From a virus (Duplodnaviria; Heunggongvirae; Uroviricota; Caudoviricetes): a DNA stretch of 9,491 nucleotides. Shown one piece after another: positions 1 to 8,434 of the stretch. The stretch is taken from IMG/VR virus record IMGVR_UViG_2619619129_000006. One strand, given 5' to 3'. The notes beneath the pieces are model-generated. The model searched no databases and was not told the DNA's origin. It worked only from the letters and a program-made list of their open reading frames with translations. Each line of letters opens with the position of its first letter. Positions within the stretch are counted from its first letter, which is position 1. Made by a program: the position numbers and the translations under genes.

Positions 1-735
<735 letters not shown>

Positions 736-737
736 CT

Positions 738-1070
738 ATGTCTGTCACAATTCAGGGAAATACCTCAACCGTTATTTCAAACAACTCCGCCCCGGAAGGA
801 ACATCAGAAATAGCCAAAATCACAAGACAAATTCAGGTGCTGACTGAAAAGCTTGGGAAAATCTCATCGGAAGAGGGGATGACGACACAGCAGAAAAAAG
901 AAATGGCTGCATTGGTACAGAAGCAAATTGAAAGCCTCAGGGCTCAACTGGAGCAGTTGTTAAGGCAGCAGGCAGAGAAAAAGAATAAAGACGCGACAGT
1001 TCAGCCTGATAAAAAAGAAGAGAAAAAAGACGATACAAATACCGCTGGCACCATTGATATTTACGTCTAA
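738..1070 (+). CDS. flxA: FlxA (Qin-prophage protein, FliA-regulated in K-12; function unknown), 110 aa
   Basis: ATG 738 to TAA 1068-1070; translation MSVTIQGNTSTVISNNSAPEGTSEIAKITRQIQVLTEK...TAGTIDIYV, 110 aa, matching my memory of FlxA sequence and length. The track ORF 666-1070 is the same frame read through from inside IS5. Confidence 0.85.
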   Translation: MSVTIQGNTSTVISNNSAPEGTSEIAKITRQIQVLTEKLGKISSEEGMTTQQKKEMAALVQKQIESLRAQLEQLLRQQAEKKNKDATVQPDKKEEKKDDTNTAGTIDIYV

Positions 1071-1084
1071 GTGACAGCCGTATT

Positions 1085-1107
1085 GTGGCCCTCATCGGGC
1101 CACTTTT
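1085..1107 (+). terminator. Rho-independent terminator downstream of flxA
   Basis: GTGGCCC (1085-1091) / loop TCATC / GGGCCAC (1097-1103) followed by TTTT (1104-1107), 15 nt after the flxA stop. Confidence 0.6.
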
Positions 1108-1299
1108 CGCCATCAGACTTTTCTTTAAAGACATATTATCTTTGTATCATTTCTGATAGTTAACATTACAAGATATAAGTAATGGACGCACTCCCAATTA
1201 GTCTATTTAAATCGCCACGAGTTTAACTGACAACCCATGATCAATTATGAATTGCAACTATTTCTGTAGTCACTTTTGTGGGGACAGTCCACAAAACTG

Positions 1300-2950
1300 C
1301 CAACTTCCGCTTCTTGCTCTTAGCGGACATTAGCATAGGCTATTTACCATAACGCCTCATTACGCGCACCGCCCAGACTGACTCAGCGCGTTTCTGGCAT
1401 ATCCCCGGTAAAACAAGTAACAAACCACCCGAAAATGAACACCAGAAACGCGACTTAAGAATCTACCCTATGAATGGATATGCACTCAACCGAATCGATC
1501 TTGGTTTCAATCTTTTTTATCGGGATCAGGCTTCTTTTTAGGTAACTTCGGGGGCTTAACTTGCTGATGACTTTGCGTTCGGCGCGTAAGCCAGGGATGG
1601 TCAGCTTTAGGTTTAACATAGTATTTTGAGCGTAAATCAATACGGGCATTATCCACTCGTTCATGGACACTCTTTTCATCATCCAGTGGTATAGGCTCCG
1701 GGCCATCAACATACTTTTCCCAGCCCAGCGCTTTCCCGTCATACAGAACGTTAATTTCACCGTCAAAGTTCTCGCATACAGTAACAACCGAATGCCTAAG
1801 TCGATATCCCCGGCCCTCACTGCGTACCTGAAACGCACTGCTTTTGTACTGGAAAGTGAGATTTTTAGACAGAACGCGCTTCGCCTGTAGGCTGAAGATA
1901 TAACCCAGTTCCTCTTCAGAATGGTGCACATCAAGATGAGCATTATCAGTAGTACGAGGCGACGTAGCGAACCGGTTGTTATAGGCTTCAATAAAGGTCG
2001 GCAACCATGCATTTGCTGTTTCAATATCACTGATATTCTGAAGCCGCATTTCTTTGACCAGCCTGTCCTGTAGTGTCTGATTGGCGCGCTCTACCCGCCC
2101 TTTTGCCTGCGGGCTGTTGGCATGGATTGGCTCGATGCCCAGTGTCTTTATCGCACGAGTGAACTGGGTCAGCTCACCTTCCCGCTCTGGGTTATTTACC
2201 CTGAATATACTGTGTCTATCAGAGTAGAGAGCGAGCGGTACGCCATGATCATTAAGGTAACCCCGGAGGGTTTCCATGTAAGCCCGGGTTGTTTCAGCAG
2301 GCACAAAACGCAACGCCATCAACGCACTGGTGGCATCATCAATGAAAACGATCAGTGTACATCTGGGGCCTCGATTTTCAAACCAGTCATGAGGTGAGCC
2401 ATCAATCTGGATCAGTTCACCGTAAGATGGTCGTCGCATGCGGCGTTGATATATACGGGCAATTTTACGACGGCGTTCACGCCATACCCCCCTCTTCTAT
2501 CATCCACTTTCTGAGAGTTTCAACGGATAAAGATAAACCGTGTATCTCGCGCAATTTTTCGCACGCAAACGTAGGTCCAAAATCAGCGTAACGGCCTTTG
2601 AGGAGTGAAATTACTGTTGCTCTGAATTCAGTAGAAAAGGAATTATTAGGACGCTTTCCACGTCGGTGGGAAACCAGACCAGAAGGCCCTTCATTTCTAT
2701 ACCGTTGCACCAGACGTTTAACCTGCCGAATAGAAATGCCAATGCGTGCCGCAGCTTGTTCCTGAGTAATATGTCGATTAATTGACTCCTGAATAATCTG
2801 AAGTCGGTGGAGTTCCTTATGACTCATCGTAACAGTTTCTTTGGTCATGAAAAATCCCCCAGAGAATTGTCTGGGGACATTTTAGAATGGTTCAAAGGGG
2901 ACATTACAGCTTGGTGTTAACAATAGCCTGCTTCTCCTTGCCTTTCGGCA
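1300..2950 (-). mobile_element. Insertion-sequence-like unit around the frameshifted DDE transposase; ends NOT determined
   Basis: A transposase gene flanked by non-coding DNA between flxA and the prophage early genes. I could not identify convincing terminal inverted repeats or a target-site duplication by eye; the coordinates are only a bracket. Confidence 0.35.
1507..2848 (-). pseudogene. IS481/ISNCY-like DDE transposase (N-terminal HTH + integrase-core domain), split by a frameshift in a G6 homopolymer
   Basis: Track ORFs 2477-2848 (123 aa, HTH-like: ...AARIGISIRQVKRLVQRY...) and 1507-2439 (310 aa, integrase core: IQIDGS...VFIDDAT...YSDRHSIF...SPQAKGRVER) are on the same strand in different frames. 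Hand translation shows the second frame is open back to a TAG at 2497-2499, just upstream of the run CCCCCC at 2487-2492 (+ coords). Removing one G would fuse them into one ~446-aa protein (...WMIEEGVWRERRRKIARIYQRRMRRPSYGELIQIDG...). Family assignment is by motif pattern only. Confidence 0.7.
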
Positions 2951-3182
2951 CGTAAGAGGCTAACCTACATGTGTCTGGCATGAAATTGGCCTCAGATTAA
3001 TGTTAAGCGTCTTGCAGGACGCGTAATGTTAACTGGGGCTTTTCTCTACCTGCCGTTGGTGTTCGTGCCCGAGGCAGATAGCCTCAAGCACCCGCAGTCA
3101 TTCTACTTAACTAAGATTTCCCCGCAAACCGTTTTTGTCCAGCACAGTAAATATCCAACTAAACCAATGGAGTTCGCTGTAT

Positions 3183-3362
3183 TTACCGCCAGTATTCAAT
3201 GCACATGACCGCCATGAACACCCCTAAAAAAAGGGCATTTATATATCCAAATATTAATATCAAAACATCAACTTTTTCCATATACCTTGCTGTGAAGATG
3301 ATGGGCATACATGATGCGAACAACCAGAACGCAACAAACAAAAACTGCAATGCGTTTTTCAT
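3183..3362 (-). CDS. Candidate small membrane protein (59 aa, two predicted hydrophobic helices), function unknown
   Basis: ATG at 3362-3360 preceded by GGAGGA (+ coords 3366-3371 as TCCTCC) with a 3-4 nt spacer; translation MKNALQFLFVAFWLFASCMPIIFTARYMEKVDVLILIFGYINALFLGVFMAVMCIEYWR. The track ORF 3183-3401 is the same frame from an upstream GTG. Lies in AT-rich DNA, where hydrophobic ORFs can arise by chance. Confidence 0.35.
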   Translation of the reverse strand: MKNALQFLFVAFWLFASCMPIIFTARYMEKVDVLILIFGYINALFLGVFMAVMCIEYWR

Positions 3363-3616
3363 TATTCCTCCTACAATCAATGTGCAATTACATTTAAACA
3401 CACCTCAATTTGGCCGGACATATAAATATCTAAACCAGAAAAAATCACTTACATAGCGTTACAAACTCTTTAGTCTAAAGGTTCATCGTAAAACATTCCC
3501 CATACTTATCAGTCCGTTCCGCGCCAGGTAGCTCATTGCCTTATCTGGCAACCTGTAATCAGGTTTCCGCTTTTTCAGTTGGCTGGTCGTTTAACCGACA
3601 TAGTTAACCCATTAAT

Positions 3617-3904
3617 CTAGTTGCCGGATGTTGGTGGATTTTCGCGTTTTAGTTGTTCATAAAAGTGCACAGCTTTAACCAATTCTTCTGATGTAACCGG
3701 GACTGGTGAGGCAGTGAATAAGGCCTGAATTTGATAGTTCGGCCTGTCGTTACAATCCTCTTTTTTCGGTACATATTTCCAGTCACCAGACCACTACTTC
3801 CCCTGAAAGTCCGTAACGCCTTTTTTCACGTAGCGATATCGCCATGTCACTGGTTTTGCTTCCCCCGCCGTTTCATGCCCTTCCTGATAATTAATCTCGC
3901 TCAT
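3617..3904 (-). pseudogene. Short nin-like ORF interrupted by an in-frame TAG (36 codons, TAG, 58 further open codons)
   Basis: ATG 3904-3902 overlaps the upstream frame's TGA (ATGA). MSEINYQEGHETAGEAKPVTWRYRYVKKGVTDFQGK, TAG at 3796-3794, then the same frame continues WSGDWKYVPKKEDCNDRPNYQIQALFTASPVPVTSEELVKAVHFYEQLKRENPPTSGN to TAG 3619-3617. Confidence 0.3.
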
Positions 3905-4092
3905 TCATCGCCCCACTCATCACAATATGCTTCGACCGGAGTTTTTCCCGCTTCATAGTCATCACGCTAGGATTCGACATCAGCAGCACTTCCACCGCGT
4001 AACTCACCATAGTCCATTAATAGTTCATCCCGCTCTTCAAAACTGATGTTATATTTAGCTGAACAAAAATCAGCCACTTTGTTCTTCCTCAT
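3901..4092 (-). pseudogene. Short nin-like ORF interrupted by an in-frame TAG (41 codons, TAG, 21 further open codons)
   Basis: ATG 4092-4090: MRKNKVADFCSAKYNISFEERDELLMDYGELRGGSAADVES, TAG at 3969-3967, then the same frame continues RDDYEAGKTPVEAYCDEWGDE to TGA 3903-3901, which overlaps the next ORF's ATG. Confidence 0.3.
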
Positions 4093-4141
4093 CGTCTTTT
4101 ATTTCGTGGTATGAGTAATTGCAGTAGTTAAAGAAAATTTC

Positions 4142-4252
4142 TTATGCTCCGTCATGAATTTCATCAGGTGTTGCGTCATCGTCCACTTCGAATACATCCT
4201 CAAAATCTCCACCAGCTATTCCCGTTTCAATAATAATTTTGAACTTTCGCAT
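4142..4252 (-). CDS. Hypothetical small acidic protein (36 aa)
   Basis: ATG 4252-4250 to TAA 4144-4142: MRKFKIIIETGIAGGDFEDVFEVDDDATPDEIHDGA. An AGGAGG lies 23 nt upstream, separated from the ATG by a GNRA-loop hairpin. Too short to call confidently. Confidence 0.3.
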   Translation of the reverse strand: MRKFKIIIETGIAGGDFEDVFEVDDDATPDEIHDGA

Positions 4253-4514
4253 TTCACTACCGCCCTTTCGGGCGGCCTCCTGATGTTCTGAGGGTGCAGA
4301 AATCCATCCGGTTAAGGATTAAGTTTTATTTACAGAACTGAATTTAATTATTCAGATATACGTATCTGTAACCTTACGAATCTACTCACTGGATGCCTCT
4401 TTCATAAAAATAATCCAGTGGGTTTTATCGTTTTTTCCCTGTTCGTTGACAGATAACAGGCTTTCTATCTGTCAGTGCCAGAATCTGGCTTACCGGTATT
4501 TGCGTTTCATTCCA

Positions 4515-4871
4515 TTAAAAAATCAGAACGCCGTGCGGCCTCAACACCCGAAAAGCTTCTTTAAATCTCTGTCGCAAATCATCACGCCAGGCATCTTTAT
4601 TCAGCCGTCCATATTTCTTTCCCATCCAGGCGTTATCACCAACACGCTCAAGATGCGGAGGGTCTAATACAACCATCGAAAAAGATGCGTCTGCAAATGA
4701 TAATGCACGAAAATCTGCGATAATGTCAGGGCTGATAATCAAGCGTCTCCCATTGCGTAATGTGTATCCTTCTTTTCTGATATCGCTAAATATCGCCCGT
4801 TCGTCAGACTTATCGAACCAGAACATGCGGCTGCCACAGCACACATCAAGAATGGTTGCCGGTGCACTCAC
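4515..4871 (-). CDS. SAM-dependent methyltransferase-like protein (motif I-like DVCCGSR, motif IV-like DPPH), probably C-terminally truncated
   Basis: Track ORF, 118 aa; GTG start 4871-4869 overlaps the upstream gene's TGA (GTGA). After the TAA at 4517-4515 the same frame stays open for 29 more codons (WNETQIPVSQILALTDRKPVICQRTGKKR), suggesting a nonsense mutation. Gene order O-like / ~140 aa / methyltransferase resembles what I recall of yfdO-yfdN-yfdM in K-12 prophage CPS-53 (unverified). Confidence 0.55.
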   Translation of the reverse strand: MSAPATILDVCCGSRMFWFDKSDERAIFSDIRKEGYTLRNGRRLIISPDIIADFRALSFADASFSMVVLDPPHLERVGDNAWMGKKYGRLNKDAWRDDLRQRFKEAFRVLRPHGVLIF

Positions 4872-5290
4872 TGCGCCACGTCCTGAAAATTACCCTGATA
4901 GAAAGCCAGTATGCGCTGCATAACTTCGCTCTTCCGGCACTCGCGACAGATTATGTTTAGGCGACTGTCGTAGCGACGTATTTCTCCGTCAGGTGATGAC
5001 CAGATAAGGTCCGGATCAACCACAGCAGGTTTCTTCACCTTTGCCCTCGAGAGTTTTTTGCGGGCGTTTTGCCAGTCCTTACGCGCCTGTTCAGAGGGGA
5101 ATAACCCGTAGCCGGAGTTGTATACATCGCCACTGGCTACCAGCTCTCTGGCAAGAACGCTCATCAGATATCTAGTCGCACCTGTTTTAGCTTCCAGTTG
5201 CCGTAACGTCTCACGGCCGCTCTGGTGCACGAGTTCCACCACCTGCCATTTAATTTTTTCCCGCTCTTCTTGTGTAAAAACTTTTGCCAC
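4868..5290 (-). CDS. Prophage hypothetical protein (140 aa), possible winged-helix region
   Basis: Track ORF with GTG start 5290-5288; MAKVFTQEEREKIKWQVVELVHQSGRETLRQLEAKTGATRYLMSVLARELVASG...; stop overlaps the next gene's start. Confidence 0.55.
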   Translation of the reverse strand: MAKVFTQEEREKIKWQVVELVHQSGRETLRQLEAKTGATRYLMSVLARELVASGDVYNSGYGLFPSEQARKDWQNARKKLSRAKVKKPAVVDPDLIWSSPDGEIRRYDSRLNIICRECRKSEVMQRILAFYQGNFQDVAQ

Positions 5291-5330
5291 AAGTCCCCCT
5301 TAAAATTACCTCATGACCTGAAATCAACAC

Positions 5331-6296
5331 TTATCCTCTGAAACCAGGCGGAATTTCTGTATCCGGTTCAGAAATATGATTAACACAACGCTGTACAGGT
5401 GAACGTCCCAGGCGGATGACCAGTTCGTCCCATTTTTCGCGGAGCTTTGACGGGCTCATGATGTTTTTTACCCAGAATGGATCTCGCTGAACCCGACCAA
5501 ACATTTCGCAAATTTGTCTGTGGCTTCTGCCATCCAGCATCCGCATTGTGCGCACGTCATTGGCCCAGGCAGTCCAGTTAGGCTCTTTTGGTCGCATGAT
5601 CTCGCCATCATCACTGGCTGCCTGTTCGTAGAGACCCACGATCCGCCCCCAGATCCACTGCGCACACGCCAAATCCTCCCTGCTACCCCACTGGCGTTTT
5701 TTCGCACTAAACACAACCGCGTCGGAGTTCCGGGTTAAAAAATCCTGTTCAGTCGTCTGCGGGTCCGGTTGCGAAGCTTCCGGACGAAAAGTGTTTTTAT
5801 TCTCTGTAGTAATCTCTGTTGTATTCTCTGTAAGATCATCAGGCCATTTTGACCCGATGACATTGGGTCGTTTTGAATCAATGGAGCGTTTCATTTTGAC
5901 CTCTTCCATCGTGTCATTTTGACCTGATGGAGCGGCGCATTTTGAACCGATGGATTCGCTCAATTTGCCACCATCTAAAAGCTCGCTCCCATAGTTGATC
6001 GTGTAGAAATTGGTCATATCGCGCTTTGATTTATTGAGCTTTTCACAACGCAAAAGCCCCAGCGTTTTCAGACTTGCAAACGCGCGCTTTAACGTTGACT
6101 CTGACCAGAATGGGAACTGTTCCAGCCATTGTTCCGTTGTGTTATAAATCCAGCGAACACCATCACATTCCATGCCGGAGTTGGTATCTCTCAACCAGTA
6201 GTGCAGTTGTTGCAAAACAATGGCTTCGTTTAAGCCAATTTTCATTGCCAGCTGCGTGTTTATAACCAGTGGGCGTTCAGCAAAAAGAAGGCTCAT
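5331..6296 (-). CDS. Phage replication initiator, O-like (N-terminal HTH replisome-organiser domain, repeat-containing linker, conserved phage C-terminal domain)
   Basis: Track ORF 5331-6350 begins at a TTG; the first ATG is at 6296-6294 (MSLLFAERPLVINTQLAMKIGLNEAIVLQQLHYWL...), giving 321 aa. The linker-coding DNA carries the iteron array listed below, as in lambda O. Confidence 0.75.
   Translation of the reverse strand: MSLLFAERPLVINTQLAMKIGLNEAIVLQQLHYWLRDTNSGMECDGVRWIYNTTEQWLEQFPFWSESTLKRAFASLKTLGLLRCEKLNKSKRDMTNFYTINYGSELLDGGKLSESIGSKCAAPSGQNDTMEEVKMKRSIDSKRPNVIGSKWPDDLTENTTEITTENKNTFRPEASQPDPQTTEQDFLTRNSDAVVFSAKKRQWGSREDLACAQWIWGRIVGLYEQAASDDGEIMRPKEPNWTAWANDVRTMRMLDGRSHRQICEMFGRVQRDPFWVKNIMSPSKLREKWDELVIRLGRSPVQRCVNHISEPDTEIPPGFRG
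5790..5976. repeat. Putative phage replication origin: six ~23-bp phased iterons plus three tandem 12-13 bp repeats, inside the O-like gene
   Basis: Direct repeats of consensus CATTTTGACCNGATGG starting at 5845, 5869, 5892, 5915, 5938, 5961; adjacent tandem units containing TCTCTGT at 5801-5807, 5814-5820, 5826-5832. Confidence 0.65.
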
Positions 6297-6798
6297 AATT
6301 CCATCCAGCTTTTTGTTGGTATTGCTGTCGATACGCAAGCTTGAAAGCAATTGCTTTTTCTATAAGTTCGTCAGTTTCACGATCCACTACGGCAGGATCA
6401 GCAAAAAGCAGTCCGGACTCCACCACATCGCCATATTCTTTGTTTAACCCGGCGATCATGCACGTGATGCTTTTTCCGTCAGTAATTTCACGATACAACC
6501 TGAAATCACTAATCCGGATAGCCTCCATAATCGCAGGCACTAGCGCCGTGAACTTTTCACGCTTATCCCTGGTGTCGATAGCCTTCCAGCGTTCGAATAT
6601 CTTCACTCGATTAACACCAAGCGCTCGCTGATCAACCGCGCCACCTTCATCTGTGACACGCTGAACATCGATGTTCGGGCGCTCTTTCAAAGCCCAGAAT
6701 GCTTCAGTGATTAATATCGTCGCCTGCTCCTGTGTCATTCCTGGTCGACATATCCAGGCATCCAGAGCCTCACGAGCCTGTTCAGGAGTGATTTTCAT
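6277..6798 (-). CDS. Hypothetical protein at the cII position between the cro-like gene and the O-like gene (173 aa)
   Basis: Track ORF; ATG 6798-6796 preceded by a G-rich SD-like stretch; overlaps dicC by 17 nt and the O-like start by 20 nt. MKITPEQAREALDAWICRPGMTQEQATILITEAFWALKERPNIDVQRV... I suspect it is the intact form of the K-12 ydfX pseudogene but cannot confirm. Confidence 0.55.
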   Translation of the reverse strand: MKITPEQAREALDAWICRPGMTQEQATILITEAFWALKERPNIDVQRVTDEGGAVDQRALGVNRVKIFERWKAIDTRDKREKFTALVPAIMEAIRISDFRLYREITDGKSITCMIAGLNKEYGDVVESGLLFADPAVVDRETDELIEKAIAFKLAYRQQYQQKAGWNYEPSFC

Positions 6799-7009
6799 TG
6801 TTCAACCGCCCCGCCCGCTTCGTCTTACGATATTCATCATAAACTTTGGGATCATACTGAAGCTCCCCGCCAGATGCCTCCTGTAGACGCATCGCGCGAC
6901 CTTCAGGAACCAGTATCCCCCAAGCAGCAACACTTGCCAGCCTCACTCCTGCGGCATTGGCAAGCTTTGTTTTGCTGCCAAAAAAAGTAATTGCGTCAAC
7001 TTTAAGCAT
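6782..7009 (-). CDS. dicC: DicC, Cro-like repressor
   Basis: ATG at 7009-7007 (track ORF starts 3 nt upstream at a TTG); MLKVDAITFFGSKTKLANAAGVRLASVAAWGILVPEGRAMRLQEASGGELQYDPKVYDEYRKTKRAGRLNNENHS; ~76 aa, divergent from dicA, as in the K-12 Qin prophage. Confidence 0.85.
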   Translation of the reverse strand: MLKVDAITFFGSKTKLANAAGVRLASVAAWGILVPEGRAMRLQEASGGELQYDPKVYDEYRKTKRAGRLNNENHS

Positions 7010-7021
7010 CAAATCCCCCTC

Positions 7022-7041
7022 TTGTTAGACTTTTCTAACAT
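7022..7041. promoter_or_regulatory. Palindromic operator TTGTTAGA-cttt-TCTAACAt in the dicC/dicA intergenic region (putative DicA site)
   Basis: 8-bp arms with a 4-bp spacer; nearly identical to the palindrome at 7533-7552; lies just downstream of the predicted dicC promoter -10. Confidence 0.55.
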
Positions 7042-7067
7042 TATTGTGCGCGGGATACCTAAGTCAA
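7040..7067 (-). promoter_or_regulatory. Candidate sigma70 promoter for dicC (-35 TTGACT, 16-bp spacer, -10 AATAAT on the - strand)
   Basis: + strand AGTCAA at 7062-7067 and ATTATT at 7040-7045. Confidence 0.45.
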
Positions 7068-7089
7068 GAAAAATTAGAATTACCTAACT

Positions 7090-7497
7090 ATGGATACAAG
7101 AACCCTGGGCCAGCGAGTTCTGGCGCGACGAAAAGAATTACGCTTAACACAACGAGAAGCCGCGCGCCTCGCTGGAGTTGCTCACGTCACAATTTCACAA
7201 TGGGAAAGAGACGAAACCCAGCCAGTCGGAAAACGATTGTTTGCTTTAGCGGATGCTCTGAAGTGCTCACCTACATGGCTAATGTTTGGTGACGAAGACA
7301 AGGCACCAGTGCCTGCACAAGAACTTCATGTGGAAACAGAGCTAACTCCCAACCACAAAGAATTGATCGAATTATTCGATGCTCTTCCATCTTCCGAGCA
7401 GGAAGCCTTGCTGTCTGAAATGCGCGCAAGAGTAGAAAACTTCAACAAACTCTTCGAAGAAATGCTTAAAGCGCGTAAAAATAAATCAATAAAATAA
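7090..7497 (+). CDS. dicA: DicA, cI-like HTH repressor of the dicB operon (135 aa)
   Basis: Track ORF; MDTRTLGQRVLARRKELRLTQREAARLAGVAHVTISQWERDETQPVGKRLFALADALKCSPTWLMFGDEDK...; HTH_XRE-type N-terminus; length and context match DicA. Confidence 0.9.
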   Translation: MDTRTLGQRVLARRKELRLTQREAARLAGVAHVTISQWERDETQPVGKRLFALADALKCSPTWLMFGDEDKAPVPAQELHVETELTPNHKELIELFDALPSSEQEALLSEMRARVENFNKLFEEMLKARKNKSIK

Positions 7498-7532
7498 CAT
7501 TCTTTTCAAGTGATTAGTTGCGCCCACCCTTT

Positions 7533-7552
7533 TTGTTAGATCAATCTAACAA
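7533..7552. promoter_or_regulatory. Perfect palindromic operator TTGTTAGA-tcaa-TCTAACAA upstream of the ydfA-dicB operon promoter (putative DicA site)
   Basis: 8/8 complementary arms with a 4-bp spacer; same half-site as 7022-7041. Confidence 0.55.
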
Positions 7553-7559
7553 AAAACAC

Positions 7560-7588
7560 TTGCCTCTCATGTTAGGTTATTCTAAATT
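7560..7588 (+). promoter_or_regulatory. Candidate sigma70 promoter for the ydfABC-dicF-dicB operon (-35 TTGCCT, 17-bp spacer, -10 TAAATT)
   Basis: TTGCCT at 7560-7565 and TAAATT at 7583-7588; a weaker TGTTAG...CTAAAT element overlaps the spacer and -10. Confidence 0.4.
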
Positions 7589-7665
7589 ATTTTCCATCAA
7601 GACACCGCACGGTGTTCTCAGCAAACAGTTCCGCTACCCCGGCGTTAAGGGGAAATGAGGTCAGC

Positions 7666-7821
7666 ATGGATACTATCGATCTTGGCAACAACGAATCTCT
7701 GGTGTACGGCGTGTTTCCAAACCAGGACGGCACGTTCACCGCAATGACGTATACCAAAAGCAAAACGTTTAAAACCGAATCTGGAGCGCGTCGCTGGCTG
7801 GAAAGAAATTCAGGTGGGTGA
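7666..7821 (+). CDS. ydfA: YdfA (51 aa, unknown function)
   Basis: ATG 7666 preceded by GAGG at 7656-7659; MDTIDLGNNESLVYGVFPNQDGTFTAMTYTKSKTFKTESGARRWLERNSGG; TGA at 7819-7821. The track ORF 7612-7821 is the same frame from an upstream start. Confidence 0.8.
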   Translation: MDTIDLGNNESLVYGVFPNQDGTFTAMTYTKSKTFKTESGARRWLERNSGG

Positions 7822-7822
7822 T

Positions 7823-7951
7823 ATGGATTTCGACACAATCATGGAAAAGGCTTACGAAGAATACTTCGAAGGCCTTGCCGAAGGCGAAGAAGCTCTCAGC
7901 TTCAGCGAATTTAAACAGGCGCTTTCCAGTTCGGCAAAATCTAACGGCTGA
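7823..7951 (+). CDS. ydfB: YdfB (42 aa, unknown function)
   Basis: ATG 7823 preceded by GGTGGG; MDFDTIMEKAYEEYFEGLAEGEEALSFSEFKQALSSSAKSNG; TGA 7949-7951. Below the ORF-track length cut-off. Confidence 0.7.
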   Translation: MDFDTIMEKAYEEYFEGLAEGEEALSFSEFKQALSSSAKSNG

Positions 7952-7980
7952 TAAGCGAAACAGCACCGCAAGGAATCAGT

Positions 7981-8199
7981 ATGCAGAAACGAGAACCCGT
8001 TATCATCGCGCCAGACTATACCGATGATGAACTTTATGAGTGGATGCACCAGAAAATTAATGCAGCGCAGGATCTGAAATGGGCTAATGAAGCCAGGGCT
8101 AAGCAGGCTGAAAATCTGTTCTCTCTGGAGCAGGATATCACCAATCTGGAAAAAGCAGCGGCATTAAGCATTGCCAGAATGATTACATACCCGCGTTAA
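7981..8199 (+). CDS. ydfC: YdfC (72 aa, unknown function)
   Basis: Track ORF; AAGGA 7 nt upstream; MQKREPVIIAPDYTDDELYEWMHQKINAAQDLKWANEARAKQAENLFSLEQDITNLEKAAALSIARMITYPR. Confidence 0.8.
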   Translation: MQKREPVIIAPDYTDDELYEWMHQKINAAQDLKWANEARAKQAENLFSLEQDITNLEKAAALSIARMITYPR

Positions 8200-8376
8200 T
8201 AGCTAACCAACGAAGCTAAGGTTGGTAATTAAGGAGTTCTCCACGGTTGTGGCAACCCGCGAAATGGCGCGGCGGTAAGTATGGCGGGGTTATTCCTTCC
8301 CCGTTGAGGACACCGGGTTGTCAGGTTGACCATACGCTTAAGTGACAACCCCGCTGCAACGCCCTCTGTTATCAAT

Positions 8377-8434
8377 TTTCTGGTGACGTTTGGCGGTATC
8401 AGTTTTACTCCGTGACTGCTCTGCCGCCCTTTTT
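8377..8434 (+). ncRNA. dicF: DicF small RNA (antisense regulator of ftsZ), including 3' U-tract
   Basis: TTTCTGGTGACGTTTGGCGGTATCAGTTTTACTCCGTGACTGCTCTGCCGCCC followed by TTTTT matches my memory of the 53-nt DicF sequence; position between ydfC and dicB matches K-12. Confidence 0.85.

Follow-up and report, generated by a model that had tools for sequence, protein, structure and literature searches.

The amber-interrupted reading frames at positions 3,617 to 4,092 of the 9,491-nucleotide stretch of DNA analysed here (the window) are very probably phage genes that have undergone nonsense decay in a defective Qin-type prophage. According to the mechanism that we propose, three small coupled early genes, called g1, g2 and g3 here, would have been inactivated by point nonsense mutations (AAA to TAA in g1, TGG to TAG in g2 and CAG to TAG twice in g3), with indels following later, and the open continuations past the stops would be leftovers of the ancestral frames in which further stops have not yet accumulated. 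Because the prophage is defective, loss-of-function mutations in genes no longer needed would persist in an element that is inherited vertically and in which these genes are dispensable for phage growth. The truncated products are presumably without function, and fixation of the mutations would have been neutral, or would reflect a silencing of early genes that does no harm or is of benefit. The positions of the genes, their lesions and the surrounding features are collected in Table 1.

Table 1. Features of the window, in order of position within each group (-, minus strand; +, plus strand).
Feature	Position	Strand	Remarks
g1 pseudogene	4070..4252	-	60-aa DUF7167 protein (phrog_1997); open except for one in-frame TAA
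Ochre stop TAA, g1 codon 37	4142..4144	-	AAA (Lys) in every intact homologue (DNA alignment, column 158)
g2 pseudogene	3901..4077	-	58-aa acidic protein (phrog_519); homologous start GTG 4077
Amber stop TAG, g2 codon 37	3967..3969	-	TGG (Trp) in all intact homologues
g3 pseudogene	3483..3904	-	119-171-aa protein (phrog_660); two amber stops, 3' part disrupted
First amber stop, g3 codon 37	3794..3796	-	Sense codon in intact relatives
Second amber stop, g3 codon 96	3617..3619	-	CAG (Gln) at the aligned codon of L014
g3 3' indels	3566..3588	-	Pairwise alignment against the 141-aa intact copy of L014
IS5, terminal 735 bp	1-735		99.6% identical to the IS5 of L019; abuts flxA
flxA	738-1070	+	
ISEsa1/ISNCY-family transposase	1507-2848	-	Intact (446 aa) in L016; frameshifted here near 2489-2490
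sok/hok-leader element	2922-3093	-	Rfam, 99.8 bits
59-aa hydrophobic ORF	3186-3362	-	Between g3 and the hok leader; intact; 96.6% identical to an ORF of L015
DicF	8378-8429	+	Rfam, 76.7 bits

An earlier note, made from the DNA letters, had described two adjacent short frames on the minus strand, and translation of the window gave the same structure. The first frame opens at ATG 4092 and after 41 codons meets TAG 3969-3967, beyond which a further 21 codons are open up to a TGA (translation of 4092..3617). The second opens at ATG 3904 and after 36 codons meets TAG 3796-3794, beyond which another 58 codons are open up to a further TAG at 3619-3617 (translation of 3904..3617). The TGA of the first overlaps the ATG of the second as ATGA at 3904-3901, and the ORF listing gives the same pair (3967..4092, 41 aa; 3794..3904, 36 aa). 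The note also considered two such continuations unlikely by chance, which from the sequence alone is a weak signal: the chance of at least 21 open codons is ~0.30 at the composition of the window, and that of at least 58 open codons is ~0.04 by composition and ~0.07 empirically over the six frames of the window. It is only with the homologues described below that the pattern goes beyond chance.

Related prophages and phages have at this place three intact overlapping small genes, g1 (60 aa), g2 (58 aa) and g3 (119-171 aa), joined by the junctions ATGGCTGA (g1/g2) and ATGA (g2/g3). These were compared with the window in an 18-sequence DNA alignment and in translation. In CFT073, ATCC 25922, vB_EcoS-640R1 and vB_Apl-pPE4 the cluster has the gene order and overlapping junctions found in the window, lies upstream of hok/sok as it does there, and has a DNA identity of 86-94%; several other E. 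coli chromosomes and metagenome contigs carry it as well. The translational coupling noted earlier is ancestral, since the overlapping junctions are already present in the intact relatives. In these relatives g1 and g2 are open and under purifying selection, whereas in the window each of the two is interrupted by a stop. In CFT073 and 640R1 g3 is damaged too, by a TAG and an A8 frameshift. Intact homologues in at least 8 prophage or phage loci have sense codons at every stop position, and each stop lies one substitution away from a codon seen in the relatives. For the two amber sites of the earlier note the sense codons of intact homologues are TGG in g2 and CAG, CCG, ATG or CTG in g3, and the single change that it had suggested for each TAG is the one observed, G to A for TGG to TAG in g2 and C to T for CAG to TAG in g3. 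Deamination at Dcm sites (CCWGG) was considered as the source of the CAG to TAG changes and was discarded, as there is no CCAGG among the three TAG contexts. Searches with g2 and g3 against Pfam, NCBIfam and PDB sequences returned no match that would point to a function, and the two genes belong to PHROG families only; the decay reading does not depend on what the ancestral genes did.

Directly upstream of the first ORF lies a further interrupted gene, g1, which the earlier note had overlooked. With its stop repaired, the translation of g1 matches Pfam DUF7167 (E=1.9e-13) and phrog_1997 (E=9e-31), and intact 60-aa copies are found in L002, L005-L010, L014 and L015. PGAP annotates g1 as 'DUF7167 family protein, internal stop' in L004 and as 'hypothetical protein, internal stop' in L019. 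The GTG start of g2 aligns with the ATG of intact copies. It lies within the end of g1, with an overlap of 8 nt, and the end of g2 overlaps the start of g3 (ATGA); the ATG at 4092 used in the earlier note lies 5 codons upstream of this GTG and is specific to the window allele. Intact 58-aa g2 proteins (P0001, P0005, P0006, P0014 and others) are present in the database, as are g3 proteins of 119-171 aa, and both sets have sense codons where the window has stops. On the 3' side of the g2 TAG the window hardly differs from intact alleles, in a stretch where L016, L017 and L018 show evident recombination breakpoints. This near-identity, as judged from the alignment, finds its simplest explanation in recombination between prophage copies, and because of it this part of g2 offers no positive sign of decay.

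The lesions of g3 are more numerous, at least five relative to the 141-aa copy of L014. Its codon 37 is CAG in L014, CCG in L003, L006 and L009, ATG in L008 and CTG in L015, and the TAG haplotype at this codon is common to L002, L005, L007, L012, L013, L016 and L018. The TAG that closes the 58-codon continuation is a second nonsense mutation, as intact copies extend well beyond it; L008 has a Gln in an NQV motif at the equivalent place. Further downstream the comparison with L014 shows two deletions, of 4 nt at 3587/3586 and of 1 nt at 3577/3576, and one insertion of 1 nt near 3568. All three are placed approximately because the stretch is diverged, and the net frameshift is not restored. PGAP records g3 at equivalent coordinates of L004, L007 and L019 as 'hypothetical protein; frameshifted; internal stop'. 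Taken together, the sense codons in intact homologues, the single-step changes and the RefSeq/PGAP pseudogene calls agree with one of the two readings in the earlier note, nonsense decay of nin-type early genes. It is already covered by public annotation, in which RefSeq treats g1 and g3 of genomes nearly identical to the window as pseudogenes, and by what is known of cryptic prophages (PMC3105296; PMC6379469); the g2 pseudogene has no PGAP annotation in L004 and L019. As a counterpoint, g1 and g2 each have a single disabling change and no indels, so that decay of these two is shallow.

A run of six A residues in g3 (A6; 3826-3821, minus strand) is A8 in CFT073 and in phage vB_EcoS-640R1 (L002/L005). 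There A8 shifts the g3 frame past the TAG and produces an 85-aa chimeric ORF, which stands as an annotated protein in the 640R1 record and is called 'frameshifted' by PGAP in CFT073. We considered the A6 run as a programmed slippery site and rejected it: the -1 frame closes at a TGA within 13 codons, the product of the +1 frame is basic and of low complexity and is seen only with the A8 of other strains, and the CFT073 copy carries the PGAP mark just mentioned. A programmed read-through or frameshift site was likewise rejected, as it is not conserved and most homologues have a sense codon at every site.

Protein databases also contain near-identical proteins that look 'intact' and in which Gln occupies the stop positions (P0002, P0004, P0041 and P0044). 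These were examined as possible CAG precursors or revertants and set aside, because the contig DNA, fetched for P0002, P0041 and P0044, has TAG. At the loci concerned (P0002, L011:289-519; P0044, L012:310-639; P0041, L013:874-1233) translation with code 11 does not match the deposited protein. The Gln entries are a gene-caller artefact, in which a code with TAG as Gln was applied to short E. coli prophage contigs. The sole real CAG at g3 codon 37 is that of L014 (P0047), which translates correctly. In addition, the 36-41 aa database proteins P0029, P0033 and P0036 are calls made on TAG-bearing alleles. Entries with TAG rendered as Gln simulate intact homologues and could mislead read-through tests that rely on protein databases alone.

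The stop alleles are widespread in E. coli. Among 5426 complete genomes, the exact 61-mer around the g2 TAG is found in 496, in single copy and always chromosomal, while the TGG-type 61-mer is exact in 962; the exact 61-mer around the first g3 TAG is found in 880, again single-copy and chromosomal, so that the g3 allele is present in 880 or more. A g1 61-mer with 0-1 mismatch occurs in several hundred genomes, in counts that do not separate TAA from AAA. Carrier strains include E. coli W and ECOR13. The g3 TAG haplotype stands on several recombinant backgrounds, with the A8 frameshift in CFT073 and 640R1 and with a different 3' end in L013. L007 combines it with intact g1 and g2, and L016 has the g1 TAA and the g3 TAG, yet TGG in g2. 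These multiple backgrounds imply that the g3 TAG is older than the g2 TAG, and the distributions indicate that the three stop events are separate in time. The word 'recent', which the earlier note had attached to nonsense decay, thus needs qualifying: decay stands, on alleles that are fixed in ~9-16% of complete E. coli genomes and that differ in age.

Purifying selection on intact g1 and g2 is strong (pairwise dN/dS mostly 0.0-0.1). Against the same partners, the g2 allele of the window has a dN/dS of ~0.2 as compared with ~0.04 among intact copies, which is raised but is not 1. Within the g3 TAG haplotype, the window and L007 differ by 7 nonsynonymous and 1 synonymous changes; this is what neutrality would give, and it would be improbable under the ratio of ~0.2 seen in intact copies (p ~0.02, binomial estimate), as expected if constraint on the haplotype were relaxed. 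For g1 the evidence of relaxed constraint is weak and consists of the stop and a few changes.

Its gene content identifies the window as a cryptic lambdoid prophage of E. coli, of the Qin type. It has the Qin hallmarks, that is, a dicA/dicC-like immunity region and the ydfABC-dicF-dicB-ydfD operon, with flxA close by; against E. coli 07-4299 (L004) positions 736-8252 show 7 mismatches, and the identity of the window to strain B379 (L019) is ~99%. The PGAP genes of these two strains comprise flxA, ydfW, the ISEsa1/ISNCY-family transposase fragment and the g1-g3 segment, followed by a small methyltransferase, a DUF977 protein, an O-like replication protein, a YdaT-family protein, a Cro/DicC-like and a DicA-like repressor, ydfA, ydfB, ydfC, dicB, ydfD and an exonuclease. 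g1-g3 are flanked by the replication genes on one side and by the hok/sok locus on the other. What is annotated as 'protein YdfW' (1656..1507) is no more than the final 49 codons of the ISEsa1-family transposase frame. The small methyltransferase, a 118-aa 'class I SAM-dependent methyltransferase' ORF (4871..4515, minus strand), is open in the window; we rejected it as evidence of decay because it is ambiguous, being a PGAP pseudogene in L004 ('frameshifted; internal stop') and intact in L019. It is also short for such an enzyme and may itself be a remnant.

Over the 9.5 kb covered, the element is clearly defective: it carries the end of an IS5 as well as an ISEsa1-like element that is frameshifted, and it has lost the hok coding sequence. 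No hok toxin coding sequence was found anywhere in the window by tblastn. An IS insertion appears to have taken out the toxin gene, because homology to the hok-bearing locus L015 stops at ~2920, about where the ISEsa1-like element starts. At the position of the IS5, L004 instead runs on into ydfV/relB. Between ydfC and DicF, L004 is ~155 nt longer than the window (window 8244-8252; L004:894-1049), and in L019 an IS5 is inserted in this interval; from these alignments the intergenic stretch that precedes dicF seems a hotspot of rearrangement. The hydrophobic 59-aa ORF that separates g3 from the hok leader probably encodes a small membrane protein. The ORF opposite to it (3199..3456, plus strand) appears to correspond, by position only, to an ORF labelled 'hornerin' in phage records, and that ORF looks spurious.

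The second reading of the earlier note was that the TAGs are read as sense, by a host amber suppressor (a supE-like tRNA) or by recoding of TAG to Gln, so that full-length g2 and g3 are made. Both g3 TAGs, and hence 2/3 of all TAGs, do align with Gln codons in some relatives, and gene callers have rendered these very TAGs as Gln on short metagenomic contigs, but the 'Gln' homologues from these callers are artefactual and their own DNA has TAG. The homologous residues are Trp in g2, Gln, Pro, Met or Leu at g3 codon 37 and Gln at g3 codon 96; the g2 TAG aligns with an invariant Trp and not with Gln. Furthermore, g1 is cut by a TAA, which is unreadable to any amber suppressor, and g3 has three frameshifting indels besides its second TAG. 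No tRNA gene, including a suppressor tRNA with anticodon CUA, was found by ARAGORN in the 9.5-kb window. None of the 14 intact window genes checked ends in TAG, as recoding would have it, although with ~1 expected this has no statistical power; against recoding, the 14 other window ORFs checked are intact under code 11, and in-frame TAGs occur only in g2 and g3. The alleles are carried by hundreds of diverse natural isolates of E. coli, in which TAG is a stop, and with the g2 allele in at least 496 of them a supE-like host suppressor is unlikely. Suppression or recoding as a whole is hardly credible on this evidence, and amber-suppressor read-through is not supported. Sequencing or assembly error has a negligible probability as the source of the stops: the A6 versus A8 difference in g3 of other strains is of an error-prone homopolymer type, but the stops are substitutions and not homopolymer indels, and metagenome contigs as well as complete assemblies, hundreds of them independent of one another, have identical 61-mers around them. 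Identical stop alleles in hundreds of complete genomes are thus real inherited alleles.

It is also very unlikely that the truncations are functional or selected, either as genuine 36-aa short genes or because inactivation of the co-transcribed g1-g3 was favoured in domestication of the prophage, for instance through toxicity on derepression or downstream polarity. Short functional genes are contradicted by the homologues, none of which ends at these positions outside the stop-bearing haplotypes, and by the 36-41 aa database proteins (P0029, P0033, P0036), which are TAG-allele calls of the same gene. For selected truncation one may cite the frequency and stability of the stop alleles, found in 496 to at least 880 genomes, but neutral variants of a vertically inherited element are also expected at high frequency. 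Genes of the Qin region such as dicB and ydfD are toxic (PMC8835842; 10.1101/2023.04.14.536235), and cryptic prophages can benefit the host (PMC3105296); both would be in line with selection for silencing. Finally, the first in-frame stops of g1, g2 and g3, counted from the homologous starts, all fall at codon 37, a pattern with a naive probability of ~1e-4, judged post hoc, that also speaks against plain decay. The spacing of the stops (175 and 173 nt) follows from the gene lengths. The stops differ in age and distribution, as in L016, which has the g1 TAA and the g3 TAG together with TGG in g2. No mechanism for the shared codon 37 emerged, and it is treated here as coincidence because it was noticed post hoc, the events are unlike in age and distribution, and the local contexts are unrelated. 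There is at most a slim chance that the stops are not neutral, their silencing being selected (e.g. for toxic products) or low-level natural read-through of UAG and UAA giving trace proteins; were this true, selected silencing of g1-g3 in Qin domestication might relate to the shared codon. Nonsense decay in a defective prophage thus remains the preferred reading.

Recoding of TAG, the closest known look-alike, has been documented in gut phages (bioRxiv 10.1101/2021.08.26.457843; PMC11210395). Like the window, phages that recode TAG to Gln (genetic code 15) have in-frame TAGs in protein-like ORFs, which callers translate as Gln. They differ from the window, where a suppressor tRNA is lacking, two genes only are affected, one site is a Trp site and a TAA and indels occur alongside; moreover, recoding is described in phage lineages of gut Bacteroidota/Firmicutes, whereas the window host is E. 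coli. The pseudogenes of the Qin (Kim) cryptic prophage, and the decay of defective lambdoid prophages in general (PMC3105296; PMC6379469), offer the other comparison. With Qin (Kim) the window shares the immunity and dicBF regions, IS insertions and point-inactivated phage genes. The Qin of K-12 presumably lacks the present segment between dicC and ydfW. The Qin of the window would have suffered less deletion, with the replication genes and g1-g3 still in place, so that decay is seen here at the stage of nonsense mutation and not as deletion. It represents an early stage of cryptic-prophage decay, after point mutations and before deletion, and is biologically of little weight.
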